Assembly: GCA_016192985.1 (NCBI GenBank)
Contig: JACPTC010000017.1
Location: 65,766-129,765 of the forward strand
Direction of reading: 5' to 3'
From: Candidatus Woesearchaeota archaeon
GTDB lineage: Archaea; Nanobdellota; Nanobdellia; Woesearchaeales; GW2011-AR4
Length of the DNA: 64,000 bases
Below, piece by piece: positions 1,889-58,092 of this stretch; within the stretch, counting starts at the first letter, position 1; each line of letters starts with the position of its first letter. The position numbers and the translations under genes are program-made. A model generated the notes under the pieces. That model was not told the origin of the DNA and made no database searches. It saw only the letters and a list, made by a program, of their open reading frames with translations.

Positions 1889-4267
1889 TCATACAATCCT
1901 GAAATTCGGCAGCGGAACAATAAATCTGCCGCCTTTTTCCCTCCATTCTTTTTCTCTTTCAATAAACTCCTTTAAGAAGGCATAGGGTAGCACTAGGAAA
2001 TAATCTGCTTTTTTCCTTGCTTCTTCTTCAGACATTATCGGAATCATTGTGCCTATTGTACACTTATTCCACTTTTCAGGGCTTTTGTCAGCAGCTCCCT
2101 CAATAAGCTCATTTGTAAGCCCGTAATACTGAAGAATGGTATTCCCCTTTGTTGATGCACCATACACATAAACCTTTTTGCCTTTCTTGACTTCTTGCCT
2201 AATAAATTCCACACACCTCTTTTTATTTTCCTCAATTCTTCTAAAAAATGCCTCGTAGTCCTCTTTTGTGAATTTTTCATCAAACAAAATGCTCCCTTTA
2301 TTGTAATGCCTCGCATATAAGCGGTAGGAACCGCCATTAACATCATTCTCCTCTATCTTAAAAATTTCCAAGCCATTTTTCTCAAAAAGGTATTTAAGAG
2401 ACTCAATGGAATAATACTCAAGATGCTCATGGCAATTATGCACTATGGCGTTTGATACAAGATAAGTTTCATCTTCGGTTTCAATGTTGTAAACCAGATT
2501 GTCATATTTTTTAAAATTAACACTTTTTACTGGAGCTAAAATATAGTTATTCTTATAGATAACATGGCAATTTTCATTACCTTTGTGTTCATAACCAAAT
2601 ATTTGCCCCAATACTTTTGATGTACCTCGTAATTGCCAAGAATCTTTTGATATTACTTCTCCACTTCTTATCTTTCTTGGATAAGGTTTCACATAGCTTA
2701 TGCCAAGCATTCCACCCAAAGATGCGGTTAGGAGTTGAACCTGTAACGCAAGAGTTTTAGATGAGGTGTGGAAATGCACCTTGTTTCCTTTGATGTAACC
2801 GTCACCATCAAATAATCCACGTAAGAAGGCTATTTTAATCTCTTCTGGCGAAAACATAATAAAATCTGGAACATGCTTGTTAATAGCCCCTTTTCCCACC
2901 AATTTAGGAAGAGCACGCGCTAAGGCAGCACAAACAACACGGACTTCAATAGAATTTCTGTCATTATAAGAAATAATGCTTGTTTTGTATTCCAGAGTTT
3001 TGAATATGTAACTTATTCTTTTTAATAGATTAGTTTCCTTTTTGTTTATAGTAAAACAAACATATGGGTTGTTGACTTTACCACCTATATGCCCTTCTGC
3101 TACATATAATCCAAGTAACCATGCAGTATCATTATTTATAGGTAGCGATGACAAACCACTTCTATAGCCACGACTATTTATTTGATTGAATTCTGTCAAG
3201 TCTATTTTATCCAAAAATTTGTTATGTATCAGTTTTGGGATAACAACAAAATCTGCTCTTCTAATTTCTTTTGCTGGAACCCACTCTAATTTGTAGTTAT
3301 CTAGTTTTGTTTTTAATTGCATACAATCATGTCTAAACCATTCTTTTTTAACAATTTTAATAGGGTGTTCAGGCGTTACCTCAATAGCTTCCAAATACAT
3401 TGGTTTAATTTTGACAATATCACCTTTAAAATGACGACTAATTGTATTTCTAATTTCCACTAATGTTCCACCATTTCCAATAGCGTAATTGCCTTTGGCT
3501 AATTTACTAATTGGTTTATTATCGCCTAAAATTATAGTGTCTGGTTTGACGCATATATTCCCAACATCGTTTTTTTCCAGCATATTCTTAAGGCACATGA
3601 GTTGAGCAACGAAAATGCCGTCTTCAGCCATTGCCTTAGCAGAGTCAGCAACAAACTGGTTTGGGTCTTCCATGTCATAAAACATTCCAATAGCGGTTAT
3701 TGCCTTTGCTTTCCCTGTGCCTAATTTTTTGTACGCATCATAGCTCCAAAAATCATGTATAATCAAATCACAATTCTGCCTGAGCTCGTTTATGAGGTTG
3801 TCAGCAGGCTCGCATCCTATTTTTATAATTCCTTTTGGATAAGATTTCAACAATGTCCCGTCATTAGCGCCAATATCCAAAACTATATCCCCTTCTTTCA
3901 GATTTGCCATTTTTGAGACAGTTTCGGTTATTTCGCGCAACGCTCTTTTCATTGTTTCCGTAAATCCTGAATGGTACCAGTAAAATTTGGAATAAAGCAG
4001 TTCCTGGGGAGCTGTGTGCCTCAATTGCAAAAGCGAACAATCTTCACAAAGAACCAATTCCAGCGGAGCTTTCATATGCTTGGAATGATCTTCCATTTTT
4101 ATAAAGTTGCTTACATACAAATTGCCCAAGGAGAAAATTGAAATAATATTGCTGGAATAGCATAATCTACAGGCTTTTATCATTGTGTAAGGCATCTGCT
4201 CCTGGTTGCTGTGAACAGCGGACAATGGAATTGTTGCCATTTTATTAATCATTAACAGGAAAACCAC
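1889..4267 (-). CDS. NDP-hexose C-methyltransferase (TylCIII-like) interrupted by an intein
   Basis: N-terminal Zn-ribbon CRLCYSS...CEDCS, class I MTase motif VLDIGANDGT, and a C-terminal NDP-hexose C-methyltransferase (TylCIII)-like domain. The mature host is 419 aa after removing the 373-aa intein. Likely real start is M25 at 4195. Confidence 0.75.
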   Translation of the reverse strand: MVFLLMINKMATIPLSAVHSNQEQMPYTMIKACRLCYSSNIISIFSLGNLYVSNFIKMEDHSKHMKAPLELVLCEDCSLLQLRHTAPQELLYSKFYWYHSGFTETMKRALREITETVSKMANLKEGDIVLDIGANDGTLLKSYPKGIIKIGCEPADNLINELRQNCDLIIHDFWSYDAYKKLGTGKAKAITAIGMFYDMEDPNQFVADSAKAMAEDGIFVAQLMCLKNMLEKNDVGNICVKPDTIILGDNKPISKLAKGNYAIGNGGTLVEIRNTISRHFKGDIVKIKPMYLEAIEVTPEHPIKIVKKEWFRHDCMQLKTKLDNYKLEWVPAKEIRRADFVVIPKLIHNKFLDKIDLTEFNQINSRGYRSGLSSLPINNDTAWLLGLYVAEGHIGGKVNNPYVCFTINKKETNLLKRISYIFKTLEYKTSIISYNDRNSIEVRVVCAALARALPKLVGKGAINKHVPDFIMFSPEEIKIAFLRGLFDGDGYIKGNKVHFHTSSKTLALQVQLLTASLGGMLGISYVKPYPRKIRSGEVISKDSWQLRGTSKVLGQIFGYEHKGNENCHVIYKNNYILAPVKSVNFKKYDNLVYNIETEDETYLVSNAIVHNCHEHLEYYSIESLKYLFEKNGLEIFKIEENDVNGGSYRLYARHYNKGSILFDEKFTKEDYEAFFRRIEENKKRCVEFIRQEVKKGKKVYVYGASTKGNTILQYYGLTNELIEGAADKSPEKWNKCTIGTMIPIMSEEEARKKADYFLVLPYAFLKEFIEREKEWREKGGRFIVPLPNFRIV
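2435..3553 (-). mobile_element. Intein with LAGLIDADG homing-endonuclease domain in the C-methyltransferase
   Basis: Starts with Cys (...VGNI|CVKPDTIILG), block B TPEHP, LAGLIDADG motifs LLGLYVAEGHIGG and LRGLFDGDGYI, ends ...AIVHN followed by +1 Cys (CHEHLEYYS). Host flanks rejoin into a conserved NI-HEH motif. Confidence 0.8.
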
Positions 4268-4271
4268 ATTT

Positions 4272-5000
4272 TTAATTCTTGCTGGTTCCTATCGCAATTA
4301 GTCTGTCCCCTATAGGGAAAATAAATTTGTTCTCAACATACTTGTACCACCAATAAATTAATTTGTTGAGTGCTGGGTTTAAAGCGCCGTAAGGATATTC
4401 CTTTTTTTTTGTTATAAGCAAGTATATCGTTGGAATGAGGCAAAAAAAATTATAATATGCCAGCTTTATGTCAGAATAGCCTGCTTTCTCAAGCTTTTCC
4501 CTGAGGAGTTTTTTTGTATACCTTTTTGTGTGCCCTATCCTTCTATCCCTCTCAGTGTACAGCCATTCGAATGTAGGCATGTCAAAAACCAATATCTTGC
4601 CATTGTTTTTAAGAACCCTTCTTGCTTCAGCCATCATCCTTTCCTCATGCTCTATGTGCTCCAGAACACCTGCAAAAAGAACCGCATCAAACTTTTCTTT
4701 TGGATGAATCTTTTCAAGCCTTATGCACTCAAAGCGCACTTTCAGCTTGTTTTTTTTTGCTTTGTCTTTTGCAAGCTTGATAAGCCTAGGGCTGATGTCA
4801 ATGCCTGTTACGTCAAGCCCTTTTCCTGCCAGATAAACAGATACTTTTCCCAAGCCGCACCCGACATCCAATATACGGTAGGCATTTATGCTCTTGAGCA
4901 GCTTATAAATAGCTTCTGCTCTTTGCTCATTGTATAAGGGTGTTTCTCTGTCCAGCGCCATCTCAGCTGCTTCAGTTTCATATTGCTCCTGCCTGTTCAT
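4272..5000 (-). CDS. Class I SAM-dependent methyltransferase
   Basis: Motif I ILDVGCGLGKVSVYLA, DxD post-I, VLFAGVLEHI motif; 242 aa. Confidence 0.7.
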   Translation of the reverse strand: MNRQEQYETEAAEMALDRETPLYNEQRAEAIYKLLKSINAYRILDVGCGLGKVSVYLAGKGLDVTGIDISPRLIKLAKDKAKKNKLKVRFECIRLEKIHPKEKFDAVLFAGVLEHIEHEERMMAEARRVLKNNGKILVFDMPTFEWLYTERDRRIGHTKRYTKKLLREKLEKAGYSDIKLAYYNFFCLIPTIYLLITKKKEYPYGALNPALNKLIYWWYKYVENKFIFPIGDRLIAIGTSKN

Positions 5001-52259: not shown

Positions 52260-52442
52260 ATGGCAAAGGAACAGGCAAAGAAGAAATTGAAAGGGAGATG
52301 GAATCTTTACGAGAAGTCAGGAGATAAACTAACAAGGAAAAATAAGTCATGCCCAAAATGCGGGCAGGGCACTTTTATGGCTAAACACTCAAACAGATGG
52401 AACTGCGGTCACTGTAAATATACAGAATTCTTGGGGAAATGA
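52260..52442 (+). CDS. rps27ae: Ribosomal protein S27a(e) (C4 zinc finger)
   Basis: CPKCGQGTFMAKHSNRWNCGHCKYT. Confidence 0.8.
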   Translation: MAKEQAKKKLKGRWNLYEKSGDKLTRKNKSCPKCGQGTFMAKHSNRWNCGHCKYTEFLGK

Positions 52443-52468
52443 CTTTTTTACATTATTTTATACATTAC

Positions 52469-53359
52469 TTATTTGTTGCTAAACTTCTGAAAAACAAGCA
52501 AATCTTCAGTTGTTAATTTCTCTCTTCTTTTGATTTTTTGCTGTATTTCCTCTTCCTTTGACTTCAAGAATAACTCTTGCTGCATCTTTATTATTTCATT
52601 TTTTTGAAAATTTATTTTGTCCAATTCCTCTTTTATGTCATTCATTATTTTCAATTTTTCCTTTAATTCAGCGTTTGCTTCTTTAAACCTTTTCTTAAAC
52701 TCAGAAAATTTTTTGAATGCGTCTTGCTCCTCATCTTTCATATTGTCAATCTCTGCAGAAATCTTTAATATTCCTTCATGCAAAATCTGGCTTTCTTTCG
52801 CCTTTTCCTGTATCAATCTATGGTTTTCATTTGCCTCTTTTCTCATCCCCTTGATCACATCAGAGATTTGATCGGTTTTTTTGCCTGCTTCTGCCATGAT
52901 ATCAGCATTTTCGTACAATTTTTTCAATTCTTTTATCCTTCTCATCAATGCCTGTTCTTTATCAAATGGCATCGGCTCTGTTTCTATCTTAAACTCAAGC
53001 TTTTCAATACTCTGCTTGATATTAGAAGGAGATTCCCTTATGTTCAATGATTTTTCAAGCTTGATTTTTTCTTTTCTTAGATTACCCAGCTCCTTTAATT
53101 TTTGAGATATGCCCCTGTTTATGCCGTCCCTTTTCGGTTTTAACTGCTTGACCTCATTAGTAAGCAAGTCTCTTTTGGCTTTACTGCTCTTTATCAGCTG
53201 GATAGCTTCTTTAATTTTTTTTGAGAATTCCTCTTTTTTCTTGAACCATGACTCTTTTTCTTTGTCCAGCCCATTCAGCAAATTCCTTAACGTAGATACC
53301 TCTGCCCTGTGCTTGTTCAGTTCTTGAACTAACTGATTTTGGCTTTGCTGTGATGTCAT
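52469..53359 (-). CDS. Coiled-coil protein (hypothetical)
   Basis: 296 aa, K/E/L-rich heptad-like sequence throughout. Confidence 0.35.
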   Translation of the reverse strand: MTSQQSQNQLVQELNKHRAEVSTLRNLLNGLDKEKESWFKKKEEFSKKIKEAIQLIKSSKAKRDLLTNEVKQLKPKRDGINRGISQKLKELGNLRKEKIKLEKSLNIRESPSNIKQSIEKLEFKIETEPMPFDKEQALMRRIKELKKLYENADIMAEAGKKTDQISDVIKGMRKEANENHRLIQEKAKESQILHEGILKISAEIDNMKDEEQDAFKKFSEFKKRFKEANAELKEKLKIMNDIKEELDKINFQKNEIIKMQQELFLKSKEEEIQQKIKRREKLTTEDLLVFQKFSNK

Positions 53360-53381
53360 GAATCTGATGCAAATGCATGTT

Positions 53382-53693
53382 TCAGCCGAATAAAGCGCCT
53401 AATCCAGCTGCTGCGGCCTCCTCACTTTTCTTCTCTTCAGCCACTTTCTTCTTTTCATCAACTTTTTCAGCCTTGTGCTCGCCATGTGCTACCGGCGCTG
53501 CCACTGCAACCTGAGCTACTGCTGCCTTTTCAATCGCTTCTTCTATGTTGACTCCTTCCAAAGCTGCGACAAGTGCCTTTGCCCTTGCGTCGTCAACCTT
53601 GACCTGTGCTGCTTCTAGCACTTTCTTGACATTCGCTTCATCAACCTTTTGGCCTGCCTTGTGAAGCAACATAGCTGCGTATATGTACTCCAT
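53382..53693 (-). CDS. rpl12: Ribosomal stalk protein P1 (L12e)
   Basis: [29 protein letters not shown]... Ala/Glu/Lys-rich hinge, C-terminal GLGALFG. Confidence 0.85.
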
Positions 53694-53696
53694 CGT

Positions 53697-54794
53697 CTAT
53701 ACCTCCAATTTGGTCCAAATAATTTTCTGGCCAATTTTGTTTGATTTTGTTATTAAACCTTTCTTATATAAATCTTTTAATGGCATGTTTACATTACTTT
53801 TTCTAACGCCTAATTTGAAAATTAATTCTTCTGTAGAAAGATTTTCCGATGAAAGCAAGTCAATAATTTCTTCCTTTGTTTCGTTATTTTTTCTTCTTAC
53901 ACCATTATAATTATTTCTAATTTCAATTAATTTTGATAGTTTATTTAACTTCGTGGGATGATTAAATCCAATTACTTGAAAATATTTTTCAATCTCTTTT
54001 GGTTTTATTGTTAAATAAAAATATGATTCTGATTTTTCAGCTATTTGAACATCGCTAAAATCTAATTTTCCTGTTAGTAATTCTTTTATAGATAATAAAA
54101 TATTTTTATTAGTTGAATAAATACTTATCTTATGATTCAAATCTACATTTCCTTCGTCATCAGCAAAAGCCCTGATTAGAGCTACGGAAAATTCTATTGG
54201 CAAATCTTTAATTCTTTCCGGGATTATGGCATTTCGTGTTTTGAAATCAATATTATAAAAGAATTTAATTAAGTCCGCAATAACTCTTGGGGACCTTAAA
54301 TCGTAACAGCCTGAATTTCTATAATAGATTTTTTCATCTACATCACCAAAAACAGATGAAATTAGTTTTTGGAAATTATCTATTAAGTCTTTATTTGAAT
54401 TTGTGTATATAGGAATATTATTCTTGTTGACGCTTCCATCTCCAATTAAATGTGCAATCAGGGCAAATAACTCTGGACTTTCGATTATCGGTAGTTTAGG
54501 ATTTTTAACCGCTAAGCTCGAATTAGGGCCTTTATAGGTGATAACATTGCTTTCAATTTCATTCCAATCAAGACCTCTTTTATTAACTATTTTTTTAATA
54601 TGGACTAAAGGTATGAATAGATTTAATTTTTTCCAAAAATGAATTACTTGAGGAGATACAGACAAGAAATTTGCTAATTTTTTTAACGAGCCAAAATAGT
54701 TTATACTATCATCTATAAATTTATCATTATCGCTAAGTAATATCCTAATCCTATCTGCTGGAAAATCTTTCAAATGAAATTTTTTAATTACCAT
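53697..54794 (-). CDS. Free-standing LAGLIDADG homing-endonuclease-like protein with flanking HTH domains
   Basis: Two LAGLIDADG motifs (LIAHLIGDGSV, LIRAFADDEGNV), an N-terminal HTH-like region and a C-terminal winged-helix-like region. Start codon directly abuts the P0 stop (TAAATG) and its stop lies 3 nt before the P1 start. Confidence 0.7.
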   Translation of the reverse strand: MVIKKFHLKDFPADRIRILLSDNDKFIDDSINYFGSLKKLANFLSVSPQVIHFWKKLNLFIPLVHIKKIVNKRGLDWNEIESNVITYKGPNSSLAVKNPKLPIIESPELFALIAHLIGDGSVNKNNIPIYTNSNKDLIDNFQKLISSVFGDVDEKIYYRNSGCYDLRSPRVIADLIKFFYNIDFKTRNAIIPERIKDLPIEFSVALIRAFADDEGNVDLNHKISIYSTNKNILLSIKELLTGKLDFSDVQIAEKSESYFYLTIKPKEIEKYFQVIGFNHPTKLNKLSKLIEIRNNYNGVRRKNNETKEEIIDLLSSENLSTEELIFKLGVRKSNVNMPLKDLYKKGLITKSNKIGQKIIWTKLEV

Positions 54795-55907
54795 TTATTT
54801 CTCTTTCTTCTCATGCTCTTCTGCTGATTTCTTATGAAGCTCATGGTATATTTTCTCAACTTCCTTTACTTCCTGCTGCTTTTCCCTCATTTTTATGTTT
54901 GCTTCAAGCTCTTTTTTTGTAGGAGCTTTTATTTCATGTGATTCTGATTTTTGTTCTTCAGGCATTATTTCTTGAAATTCTTTTTTTACTTCGGTTTTAT
55001 CTTCTGCATTTTCGTCTTTTATCTCATGCTTTTTTTCAAAAGTTTCTATATTTGCAGAATCTTTCAGGCTTATCATTTGCTGCTGGGCTTTTCCCAAAAG
55101 CAATTCAATGATTCCCTTGTCAAAAATATTTTGTGAAATTCCAAGATTTTTTGCGTCATTGTTTGCCTTTCCAATCAAAACCGAAATAGTTTCTTTTGTT
55201 GGGTAAGCAGAGTTCACTGCAAGATTAAATGCCCATCTTGAAGCATTGCTTAGCCTGTTTTTGTATTCTGTTTCGTCAATTGAAAGCACATCCTTTGTAT
55301 AGATTAACCCCCTTTCATAAACAGCAACCAGCTCAAGGCCGACTTCCATTGGCTGAATTCCAAGTCTTGTTAAGATTTCAGCAACCTTTGGCTTTATCTT
55401 TTCCCCGGCTTTTACAACAACTGTGTCCTCCTTTATAGCCACTTTGCCACTTTCCACTCCAGCTTTAATGCCAGCTAATGCAAGCTCTCCAATTATAGGT
55501 CCAGGAGCAAATGATGTTGGGCCTTTGCTTACAGCAATATCCCGAGGGGCTGTTTGGCCGGGCTTTGCCGGCGCAGGGCTTTTGTTTTTCTGCAGGGTTT
55601 TGCTTAGCTTGAAGGGATTTTCTTTTGTGAATATCAATGCAGGCATTCCGCCTAAATGAACTTCAAGCTTTTCAATACCTTCTTTTTTTGATTTTGTCTG
55701 TTCGATGGCAAGATTCATAAACCTTCTTTTTGTCATTGTAATCTTGAAGCTACTTCTCAATTGAGCCCTCATTGCCTGCAACTGCGGTGCAGGAAGATTC
55801 TCCATATTGACAACTGCGATTATAGGATACTCATTAATGAGGTTAACAAGACTGCCTACAATCTCCTTTTTGTATTCCGCAACATGCGCTTGTATTGCTT
55901 CTGCCAT
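54795..55907 (-). CDS. rpl10: Ribosomal stalk protein P0 (L10)
   Basis: MAEAIQAHVAEYKKEIV...; P0 core with long K/E-rich C-terminal extension; 370 aa. Confidence 0.85.
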   Translation of the reverse strand: MAEAIQAHVAEYKKEIVGSLVNLINEYPIIAVVNMENLPAPQLQAMRAQLRSSFKITMTKRRFMNLAIEQTKSKKEGIEKLEVHLGGMPALIFTKENPFKLSKTLQKNKSPAPAKPGQTAPRDIAVSKGPTSFAPGPIIGELALAGIKAGVESGKVAIKEDTVVVKAGEKIKPKVAEILTRLGIQPMEVGLELVAVYERGLIYTKDVLSIDETEYKNRLSNASRWAFNLAVNSAYPTKETISVLIGKANNDAKNLGISQNIFDKGIIELLLGKAQQQMISLKDSANIETFEKKHEIKDENAEDKTEVKKEFQEIMPEEQKSESHEIKAPTKKELEANIKMREKQQEVKEVEKIYHELHKKSAEEHEKKEK

Positions 55908-55910
55908 TTT

Positions 55911-56591
55911 TTATTTTGTTTCTTTTGCTACCTCAATTTTCTCTCCAATCTTGACAGGCTTTCCCATGGTTAATTTTACATACACTCCTTTGATGTTATG
56001 GCTTTCATTAGGCAATCCCTGTAGCAATGAATTATAAACAAAAATAGCGTTTTCAGTTGCTTTATTGATGTCCATATCCTCAACTCCAATAGCGCACTGG
56101 ATCAAAGGTGCGGTTCTTGCAGTTATTCTTACTGTGCGCTGCAGTTTCTCGTACAAGGCTCGGAGGTTTGCATTTGGAGGCACTATGCACCCAGACTTAG
56201 GATTTGGCATCTTTGCTCTTGGTCCGAATATCCTTCCAAAGGCAGTAGCAACTTTCGGCATTATGTTCGATTGGGCAATGAAAAAATCAAAGCTATTGGC
56301 AATTTTTCTTATTTCCCTTTTGTCCTTATACTTAGCGAAATTGTCTGCTAAAATCACAGAATCGCAAACTGATTGTGCCTGTTGCTCAAGCTCAGGCCCT
56401 ACCAAAGCACATACCTTTGCTTTCTTGCCTCTTGGGTGCGGCAATGTTACAAAGGCATCAACCTGATGCTCCTGCTTTTTTAAGTCAAGCCCTTTTAAGT
56501 TTATGATTAAGTCAAAACTCTGCTTAAAATTTCTTTTCTCAGAAATATCCTTTGCCTTTAGTAAAGCTGCTTGTATTTGTTCTTTATCCAT
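55911..56591 (-). CDS. rpl1: Ribosomal protein L1
   Basis: MDKEQIQAALLKAKDISEKRNFKQSFDLIINLKGLDLKK...; 226 aa. Confidence 0.9.
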   Translation of the reverse strand: MDKEQIQAALLKAKDISEKRNFKQSFDLIINLKGLDLKKQEHQVDAFVTLPHPRGKKAKVCALVGPELEQQAQSVCDSVILADNFAKYKDKREIRKIANSFDFFIAQSNIMPKVATAFGRIFGPRAKMPNPKSGCIVPPNANLRALYEKLQRTVRITARTAPLIQCAIGVEDMDINKATENAIFVYNSLLQGLPNESHNIKGVYVKLTMGKPVKIGEKIEVAKETK

Positions 56592-56716
56592 TTGCCCTCC
56601 TACCGAAGTAGTTTAACGGGTAATATATGTATGGAATATTGGAGGCTTTAAAAAAGTATGTGTTTTTGGAAAGATTTAAATATTCCTAGCTTAATGAGTT
56701 TTAAAGGGAATAATAA

Positions 56717-56959
56717 ATGAAAAAAGAGGTATTGTCAATTTTAATTTTGATGGCTATTTCCATAGTTGCCTGCCAGCAAGCTGTTAAAAAGGAAGTCATT
56801 GAAAAAATGCCTGAAGCGCCTAAGTTGGATGCGACAAGAGAAGCAGCTGTAGATTCTGTTGGCAAAGATTTGGACAATGTAAACAATGTTGAAAAAGACT
56901 TAAGCACAGAGGAACTTAGCGATTTAGATGCAGAATTGGCGGACATGCAAAATATTTAA
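56717..56959 (+). CDS. Small secreted/lipoprotein-like protein (hypothetical)
   Basis: Signal-peptide-like LSILILMAISIVAC followed by an acidic region; 80 aa. Confidence 0.3.
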   Translation: MKKEVLSILILMAISIVACQQAVKKEVIEKMPEAPKLDATREAAVDSVGKDLDNVNNVEKDLSTEELSDLDAELADMQNI

Positions 56960-56994
56960 GAAGATTTTTATAAAAATACTATTTCTTCTGGCTT

Positions 56995-58092
56995 ATGATT
57001 AAGATTGATGGGAGCTATGGAGAGGCTGGCGGACAAATCGTGCGAACAGCATTAGCCCTTTCCACAATCACCCAAAAACCATTTGAGATTTATGACATTA
57101 GAAAAGGGCGCAAAGACTCTGGACTGAAAAGCCAGCATTTGTATTGTGCAAAAGCCCTTCAGGAGCTTTGCAGCGCTGATATAGAAGGAGCAGAGCTTGG
57201 CTCTTTATATTTGAAATATCATCCAAAAAAGATTGTTGCTAAAAATCTGGACATAGACATTGAAACTGCTGGCTCCATAACGTTGTTGCTTCAGGCTTTG
57301 TTATTGCCCTCAATATTCCTAAGCAAGCCAATCACAATAACCATAAGCGGGGGCACAGATACAAGATGGAGCATGCCTTTTGACTACTTCTTCAATGTTT
57401 TGCTGCCGCAACTCCAGCGATTTGCTAAAATAGAAGCTAAATTGTTGAAGAGAGGATACTATCCAAAAGGCAATGGCAAAGTTGAAATTAAAATAGCCTC
57501 AAAATACAAGTTAAATGATTTTTCTAGTTTTGATGAATTTCACAAACATTTAATACAAAATGTTCAGAAATATAATTTAATAGAACAACATTACTTAATT
57601 CAAATAAAAGGCATTTCGCACGCATCAAGTAATCTGCAAAATGCTAAAGTTGCAGAAAGACAGGCAGAATTTGCTAGGAACATGCTAAAATCTAAATATA
57701 ATATCCCAATAAACATATCAACTCAGTACCAAGAAACCTTATCAACAGGCTCTGGCATCACTTTATGGGCGATTTTTTCAAAAGATAAAGATGACATTGA
57801 TGAAAATAATCCGATTAGGCTTGGTGCAGACGCTCTTGGCGAGCAAGGCAAAAGAGCAGAAATTGTTGCAGAAGAAGCAGCCAAGAACTTAATCATGGAA
57901 ATTGAAAGCAAAGCTCCCGTAGACATGCATCTTGCAGACCAAATATTGCCATTCGCGGGATTAATTGGAAATTCAAAAATTAAAGTTTCTGAAATAACAA
58001 ACCACTGCAGGACAAATATTTATACAATAAACCAGTTTCTTGGACAAGTTTTTGAAATTGATGAAGAGAATAATATCCTATCGATTGACTGA
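56995..58092 (+). CDS. rtcA: RNA 3'-terminal phosphate cyclase
   Basis: MIKIDGSYGEAGGQIVRTALALS N-terminus and ...HLADQ motifs; 365 aa. Confidence 0.85.
   Translation: MIKIDGSYGEAGGQIVRTALALSTITQKPFEIYDIRKGRKDSGLKSQHLYCAKALQELCSADIEGAELGSLYLKYHPKKIVAKNLDIDIETAGSITLLLQALLLPSIFLSKPITITISGGTDTRWSMPFDYFFNVLLPQLQRFAKIEAKLLKRGYYPKGNGKVEIKIASKYKLNDFSSFDEFHKHLIQNVQKYNLIEQHYLIQIKGISHASSNLQNAKVAERQAEFARNMLKSKYNIPINISTQYQETLSTGSGITLWAIFSKDKDDIDENNPIRLGADALGEQGKRAEIVAEEAAKNLIMEIESKAPVDMHLADQILPFAGLIGNSKIKVSEITNHCRTNIYTINQFLGQVFEIDEENNILSID

Follow-up and report, generated by a model that had tools for sequence, protein, structure and literature searches.

LAGLIDADG homing endonucleases make a site-specific double-strand cut in a target of about 20 bp, leaving 4-nt 3′ overhangs, and are known mainly from introns and inteins. 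The archaeal monomeric enzymes and the intein endonucleases are hosted in this way, by rRNA introns or by inteins, and the searchable literature on LAGLIDADG proteins in DPANN archaea and Woesearchaeota concerns rRNA and tRNA introns and inteins. The gene analyzed here, which we refer to as X, differs in being free-standing, in a spacer between protein genes. Its product is only 15 to 20% identical to I-DmoI, I-Tsp061I, PI-PfuI, TliVMA, and PI-SceI, and it has an N-terminal helix-turn-helix (HTH) domain and a C-terminal winged helix that are not found in I-DmoI, I-Tsp061I, or the intein endonuclease domains.

Several other described systems resemble X in part. WhiA is a bacterial transcription factor derived from a LAGLIDADG protein; it has lost the catalytic acidic residues and is vertically conserved in Gram-positive bacteria. 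In contrast, X keeps these residues (D119 and E214), has no WhiA match in Pfam, is archaeal, and occurs sporadically; the likeness is structural only. The yeast HO endonuclease (F-SceII) is, like X, a free-standing LAGLIDADG protein with an added DNA-binding domain, sequence specific in the case of HO. HO, which is intein derived and uses zinc fingers, has been fully domesticated and serves mating-type switching, whereas X is gained and lost and gives no indication of a role for the host. The seg and mob genes of phage T4 and the HTH-anchored enzymes of the I-TevI type are similar to X in their intergenic position between conserved genes, in flanking-marker co-conversion, and in their modular extra DNA-binding domains. 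However, these free-standing phage enzymes are GIY-YIG or HNH proteins in phage genomes, and X is a LAGLIDADG protein of an archaeal chromosome, in a ribosomal protein operon. Finally, ArsR/SmtB regulators are full-length winged-helix proteins of about 100 aa, whereas the corresponding part of X is just a 60-residue module out of 365 aa; X scores 18.5 bits with the NCBIfam model HTH_metalloreg, against a cut-off of 55, and has no full-length ArsR match. NCBI lists the identical protein, MBI3026921.1, under the name "ArsR family transcriptional regulator," which is misleading.

Results

In the window, by which we mean the whole stretch of 64,000 nucleotides that was analyzed, X is an ATG-started ORF of 365 aa on the minus strand, at positions 53697 to 54794. 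As the original prediction had it, this double-LAGLIDADG ORF separates the genes for two ribosomal stalk proteins; the ORF coordinates and the Pfam matches of the neighbors place P0 (uL10; 370 aa, 54795 to 55907, minus strand, Ribosomal_L10 and RL10P_insert) upstream of X and P1 (aP1/L12; 103 aa, 53382 to 53693, minus strand, Ribosomal_60s) downstream of it. Ribosomal protein L1 (55911 to 56591, minus strand, Ribosomal_L1) is the first gene of the string L1-P0-X-P1. L11, which had been counted as a member of the local cluster, is not adjacent in the window; upstream of L1 we found instead an 80-aa ORF and RtcA on the opposite strand. The tight junctions that had been described are present in the sequence. 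Read on the minus strand, the P0 stop TAA (54795 to 54797) touches the ATG of X (TAAATG), and the X stop TAG (53697 to 53699) is followed by the 3 nt ACG and then by the P1 ATG at 53693.

Three independent contigs from Logan, each from a different sequencing run, are exact substrings of the window that cross the end of P0 into X, and the order L1-P0-X-P1 is repeated in about 25 other independent contigs. Because separate runs reproduce the P0-X junction, the locus is not an assembly artifact, and the concern that it might prove to be a chimera can be set aside. The window's P0 and P1 sequences, looked up as exact matches to find X-less alleles of the same strain, are both absent from the records. 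The C terminus of P0 in the window is colinear with that of X-less relatives, which implies that X took the place of spacer and not of coding sequence. The missing canonical GLGALFG tail of P0 had suggested truncation by the insertion, an idea that we rejected given this colinearity and the fact that about 90 P0 proteins of the Woesearchaeota type, with X or without it, all lack the tail. Given spacers of 0 and 3 nt and a P1 Shine-Dalgarno (SD) sequence that lies inside X, it is plausible, from the sequence, that X is cotranscribed with the operon. A count of oligo-T terminator runs in X, used as a test for read-through transcription, gave 3 observed versus 3.4 expected and hence no signal of depletion.

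The protein has three parts, all encoded on the minus strand. Pfam recognizes LAGLIDADG_3 in two stretches (E = 8.8e-8) and HTH_5/ArsR at residues 305 to 350 (E = 6.6e-6, above the cut-off), the latter within an ArsR/SmtB-type winged HTH at about aa 305 to 362 (53709 to 53882). At the other end, a helical HTH domain spans about aa 20 to 82 (54549 to 54737), with weak Pfam matches of the Cro/YdaS type (YdaS_toxin and P22_Cro) at aa 27 to 63 and, in the AF2 model, helices at residues 23 to 34, 37 to 44, 48 to 56, 63 to 73, and 77 to 82. Both terminal regions therefore agree with the HTH-like and winged-helix-like character first ascribed to them. Within the N-terminal region, F11-P12 and W54 belong to motifs conserved across the whole family. 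It is probable that the Cro-like HTH and the ArsR-like winged helix, flanking the core on either side, lengthen the DNA footprint.

The two-domain nuclease core itself, at about aa 100 to 295 (53910 to 54497), has the LAGLIDADG fold, alpha-beta-beta-alpha-beta-beta-alpha repeated twice, with its DNA-binding beta-saddle. Each repeat carries the motif with a catalytic acidic residue followed by glycine (D119-G120 and E214-G215): motif 1 reads LIAHLIGDG (54435 to 54461, catalytic D119) and motif 2 reads IRAFADDEG (54150 to 54176, catalytic E214). D119, G120, and E214 are invariant in 30 homologues, the catalytic pair down to 28% identity. When 159 aligned family representatives were compared, D119, G120, and D213 were found in all of them, position 214 was always acidic (E in 153, D in 6), and K282 was retained in 96%. 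The motifs are thus not degenerate, a point on which the choice between a mobile gene and a domesticated one had been made to depend. The dN/dS of X, 0.13 to 0.20, indicates purifying selection and is near that of the ribosomal proteins. The endonuclease is predicted to be, probably, still active.

X is rare among close relatives of its host. One genome per species (GTDB) was scanned with a profile of the P0 N domain, and the 80 species whose P0 came closest, all of them Woesearchaeota or Nanoarchaeota metagenome-assembled genomes with a P0 53 to 85% identical to the window's, were inspected for what follows it. X was present in a single one (locus L027); P0 was followed directly by P1 in the other 79, including every species with a P0 at 78 to 85% identity, where the spacers measure 1 to 385 nt. 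The synteny of rpl10 and rpl12 in relatives, proposed as a check, therefore reveals no universal orthologue, and its absence from 79 of 80 species implies that X is dispensable. In a tree of L1 and P0 comprising 90 taxa or loci, X-bearing taxa turn up one at a time, dispersed among X-less taxa, and the frequency of X comes to about 1% of sampled species. The X-bearing L027 and the X-less L029 have flanking genes that are about 92% identical in DNA.

Where X does occur, it occurs in one place. Homologues of at least 35% identity with readable context, on about 25 distinct contigs, all lie between P0 and P1 and on the same strand. This holds into a distant host group (L097 to L108) whose P0 is 32 to 38% identical to the window's and whose X is 43 to 48% identical. 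The 3′ end of X falls 0 to 3 nt before the P1 ATG or overlaps P1 by 17 to 35 nt, leaving the right-hand junction essentially fixed; the left side is loose, with P0-to-X distances of 0 to 1231 nt.

At the fixed junction, X has taken over the SD of P1. The window reads TTG GAG GTA TAG acg ATG, in which GGAGGT (53701 to 53706, minus strand) lies within the X codons for L-E-V and 7 nt 5′ of the P1 ATG. X-less relatives have GGAGG at an equal distance from that ATG, and the end of X holds GGAGG or AGGAG in most X-bearing lineages. As X has absorbed the ribosome-binding site, P1 translation relies on the 3′ end of X and is probably coupled to it. Among 75 X-less loci, the DNA conserved by the insertion point consists of GGAGG, a near-invariant AAA before the ATG, and the first P1 codons. 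An X-less junction of the L019 or L013 type reads ...GGAGGTAAACAAA ATGGAATATGTGTACGCAGCTATGTTGCTTCACAAG, compared to ...TTGGAGGTATAGACG ATGGAGTACATATAC... for the X-bearing one. The two differ in the spacer between SD and ATG (ATAGACG in the X-bearing allele, AAATAAA in the X-less one) and, for the window's clade, in P1 codons 2 and 4 (GAG/ATA versus GAA/GTG without X). The association of codon 4 (ATA versus GTG) with the presence of X or a remnant in the close clade gives a Fisher p of 0.017, which, the loci not being phylogenetically independent, is a hint only.

Two X-less species retain deletion scars. The tail of X, comprising its last 16 codons, the stop, and ACG (54 nt; 53694 to 53747, minus strand), corresponds to the entire P0-P1 spacer of L016 and L031, which match the window at 53 and 50 of the 54 nt, respectively (tblastn E = 2e-7 and 1e-6), and translate as KSNKIGQKIIW[T/A]KLEV. 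The match of 53/54 is striking given that the host genes of the window and L016 are near synonymous saturation (0.77 to 0.86). Capture of the P1 SD may be a reason that both remnants keep exactly the segment bearing it. A search of long "empty" spacers for further degenerate remnants, using the family HMM on six-frame translations, found none besides these two. The 810-nt spacer of L063 resembles a K/E-rich extension of P0 and not X.

Transfer is also suggested by the divergence of X relative to its flanks. In the trio formed by the window (WIN), L027, and L095, synonymous-codon divergence, expressed as a fraction of the saturation expected from each gene's own codon usage (an approximate correction), is 0.47 to 0.63 for X versus 0.84 to 1.02 for P0 and L1; the Nei-Gojobori (NG86) dS is 0.62 for X versus 1.82 for P0, with L1 saturated. 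The extreme AT bias of X could account for part of its lower value. In other pairs (L008-L012, WIN-L094, and L100-L101), X and host genes diverge in step, so that long vertical phases also occur. Neighbor joining, the only method used for the X and host trees, separates a group B of hosts with 100% bootstrap, whereas the X tree puts most group-B X inside the group-A diversity, a conflicting split with 84% support, and L108 elsewhere. The GC content of X is 26.8% versus a window mean of 36.8%, the lowest of the 45 ORFs of at least 200 aa in the window; across all hosts it is 21 to 33%, below the flanks every time.

The differences between L027 and its sister L029 are concentrated in two short stretches, the final 33 nt of P0 and the initial 15 nt of P1. 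Those first 15 nt of P1, ATGGAGTAYATATAC, are common to the X-bearing window and L027 and to the remnant locus L016, and L031 is one base off; the P1 start ATGGAGTATATATAC of L027 is that of the window and of L016, and X-less sister species have ATGGAATAYGTGTAY instead. Such flank differences are as expected for a short co-conversion tract, and the 5′ end of P1 is a candidate for either the target or a co-conversion region. Taken together, the remnants, the low synonymous divergence relative to the flanks, the tree conflict, and the aberrant GC content argue for mobility of X, which combines a fixed site and sporadic presence with evidence of both transfer and loss.

X belongs to a large, undescribed family. 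A profile search of 1.84 billion representative proteins yielded 2963 relatives at E values up to 1e-3 and 180 (as clusters at 50% identity) at E values up to 1e-30, most of them 360 to 390 aa long and matching end to end. No curated model in NCBIfam or PHROGs covers X; the matches there are to intein-containing proteins and generic HTH models. Paralogues of equal length and like architecture, 26 to 33% identical and sharing an N-terminal "WHIWDFPD" signature, occupy other loci: tail to tail with the gene for the tRNA-splicing endonuclease EndA (at least 7 contigs), between HMG-CoA reductase and HMG-CoA synthase, upstream of SRP54, and upstream of an Lhr-like helicase that itself bears an intein. 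A family of homing endonucleases that had branched out to several conserved targets would be expected to show such positions beside varied housekeeping genes. Viral contigs (IMG/VR) contained no relatives, and hence no vector was seen.

Discussion

We consider it likely that X is a free-standing, single-chain LAGLIDADG homing endonuclease gene whose home is the spacer upstream of P1 in DPANN archaea of the Woesearchaeota type. Of the two readings offered by the original prediction, a domesticated DNA-binding derivative or an endonuclease that invades the space between genes, it is the latter that the patchy presence, the intact motifs, and the signals of transfer and loss support. We favor a homing gene over a recruited regulator because X is dispensable, sits at one site in distant hosts, leaves scars, is younger than its flanks in some lineages, has a foreign GC content, and has a constrained active site.

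We infer cleavage, the exact target, the mechanism of immunity, and the route of DNA exchange from these patterns, and imagine that X spreads as follows. The protein would recognize the X-less junction, approximately GGAGGTAAATAAA/ATGGAATAYGTGTAYGCAGC, which is the sole strongly conserved DNA beside the insertion point, and would make a double-strand break there. Homologous repair off an X-bearing allele would then copy X into the spacer along with a handful of adjacent P1 bases. The resulting allele may be immune owing to its altered SD-ATG spacer and, in the window's clade, also to P1 codons 2 and 4. X would be transcribed with the operon, since it runs through the P1 SD to or over the P1 ATG.

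Some observations fit homing less well. X-bearing alleles keep the SD and ATG together with most of the opening codons of P1, so that immunity would have to rest on a few substitutions or on sequence 5′ of the SD. Its rarity, at the frequency given above, is unusual for an efficient homing element. In addition, a pair of HTH domains and so close a fit into the operon would be in keeping with a regulator as well.

That leaves the alternatives to be weighed. One can envision X as a domesticated DNA-binding regulator derived from a LAGLIDADG protein, as WhiA is, with the HTH and winged helix controlling the stalk operon or other genes and the operon position serving coexpression. The HTH domains, the operon integration, and the strong constraint are all consistent with this, yet a regulator would hardly be missing from all but 1 of the 80 species closest in P0, nor would one expect the deletion remnants in L016 and L031 or paralogues at unrelated loci. 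Further, the catalytic D and E positions are kept in all 159 family members (position 214 being acidic throughout), unlike in WhiA, to whose families X has no Pfam match, and the foreign GC content together with a synonymous divergence under that of the flanks speaks of transfer; we think it unlikely that X is such a regulator. Nor do we find it probable that X is an ancient, immobile resident, inserted once in an ancestor, inherited vertically, lost many times, and surviving because P1 translation depends on its 3′ end. The fixed right junction with the P1 SD within the end of X in most lineages, the retention of exactly the SD-bearing tail in both remnants, the several X-bearing pairs in which X and host diverge in step, and an X tree that partly mirrors the host tree would all follow from such a history. 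However, it requires that X was lost completely and independently many times along the host tree, and it leaves unexplained an X in the WIN/L027/L095 trio with roughly half the synonymous divergence of L1 and P0, the 53/54-nt match of the L016 remnant despite near-saturated host genes, the nesting of group-B X in group-A X, and catalytic residues that stay invariant without homing.

Far less probable than either is that X is an artifact or an element of another kind. The AT-rich sequence at its boundaries offers nothing but scattered chance matches, and X is flanked by neither the terminal inverted repeats nor the target-site duplication of a transposon or insertion sequence. An intron-encoded ORF is excluded by the position between two separate genes and by the lack of any Rfam match, group I and II introns included, in the region from 52400 to 57000 at E values up to 1. 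An intein is excluded by the lack of a Pfam Intein_splicing match and by the separate ATG and stop with which X lies between two complete genes, P0 and P1. As to a chimera, the junctions are reproduced by independent assemblies.

A tentative wider reading, which we put forward as possible and still doubtful, is that of a large, undescribed DPANN family of free-standing tripartite homing endonucleases (HTH, double LAGLIDADG, and winged helix), with subfamilies locked to the edges of essential genes: the P1 start, the EndA 3′ end, the HMG-CoA synthase start, and SRP54. The P0-P1 subfamily would be partly "addictive," besides being mobile, by virtue of the absorbed P1 SD, with only very precise deletions, such as those that left the 54-nt remnants of L016 and L031, being viable. 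If this holds, its spread among hosts with P0 proteins about 35% identical would be direct evidence of DNA exchange and homologous recombination among episymbiotic DPANN archaea.

We found no description of the P0-P1 element in the searchable literature, where the exact phrase "free-standing LAGLIDADG" led to organelle-genome papers only. Neither the nuclease fold nor the homing lifestyle is unfamiliar. What is new is the tripartite architecture, the free-standing state on an archaeal chromosome, the residence in a ribosomal operon, and the takeover of the ribosome-binding site of P1. A free-standing LAGLIDADG family in archaeal chromosomes, within a highly conserved ribosomal operon, widens the niche of this class of enzymes, while the "ArsR" mislabel of the family propagates through databases. 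Its members are possible meganuclease scaffolds, whose two accessory DNA-binding domains may read targets longer than the classical 22 bp. How selfish genes resist deletion is a more general question, brought up here by the way in which X has taken in the ribosome-binding site of P1. In the Woesearchaeota themselves, uncultured archaea in which exchange is otherwise hard to observe, gene flow and homologous recombination can be followed through the scatter of X, the remnants it left, and its low synonymous divergence.

Results and Discussion

X, the free-standing tripartite LAGLIDADG gene (window 53697-54794, minus strand, 365 aa), lies between the genes for stalk proteins P0 and P1. Some of the members at this site are longer, at 484 to 507 aa (L008, 4129-4848; L009/L010; proteins P0014, P0016, P0019, P0028, and P0031); these carry an additional C-terminal extension of about 130 aa with another HTH-like segment, and in L008 two small ORFs on the opposite strand lie between P0 and X. 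The gene downstream of P1 in the window (52469-53359, minus strand) encodes a DUF7121-family coiled-coil protein of 296 aa, and this protein is again a neighbor of the stalk genes in both L008 and L012. After it in the window come the S27ae, S24e, Spt4, RpoE, and PIN genes, in a string that L004 and L007 share.

Two X-less species retain a 54-nt X tail as a deletion remnant between P0 and P1, at 5072-5125 of L016 and at about 2375-2428 of L031. Despite differing in their P0 C-termini and belonging to different subclades, they have an identical left boundary, at X codon 350, immediately after the P0 stop. One can envision a single deletion that spread through recombination; microhomology (AATAA) and abortive homing are also possible explanations for the common boundary.

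All four Logan contigs with the window's exact X (L158 to L161, from SRR12113433, SRR12113425, SRR12113422, and SRR12113431) terminate precisely at the X stop codon (...GGAGGTATAG). A branch in the de Bruijn graph would produce such ends if alleles with a common X tail and P1 start were present together in the same groundwater samples; an allele with an L016-type remnant would be one example.

Paralogues of X also lie beside other housekeeping genes. The one in L116 (2941-3930) sits between HMG-CoA reductase and HMG-CoA synthase, and its N terminus (MVFMNPGIVGYGAEF...) resembles that of the downstream HMG-CoA synthase (MSVGVVGYGAYVP...). This likeness may reflect partial duplication of the 5′ end of the target gene. 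In another subfamily, with 26 to 32% identity to X (L115, L118, L119, L122, L125, L129, and L131), the paralogue and EndA, the gene for the tRNA-splicing endonuclease, repeatedly stand tail to tail with an overlap of a few nucleotides, often with RNase Z or ribosomal protein S17e nearby.

The 64-kb window holds a second LAGLIDADG element, unrelated to X: a 799-aa C-methyltransferase (1892-4288, minus strand; Methyltransf_13, Methyltransf_23, and Methyltransf_14 matches) is interrupted by an intein carrying a LAGLIDADG_3/Hom_end endonuclease domain.

That leaves the stalk itself. The Woesearchaeota-type P0 proteins examined (about 90, from the window and L001 to L092) range from 285 to 729 aa and have K/E-rich C-terminal extensions. 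Many of them end in a recurring alternative motif, of which ...VEDLTKELLKKGTLRK and ...VPSAHEL..KKKK are examples. None has the stalk tail in its canonical form (...GLGALFG), a tail that is present in every P1. Because P0 lacks this tail throughout, Woesearchaeota-type P0 may not use it, as is usual, to bind translation GTPases.
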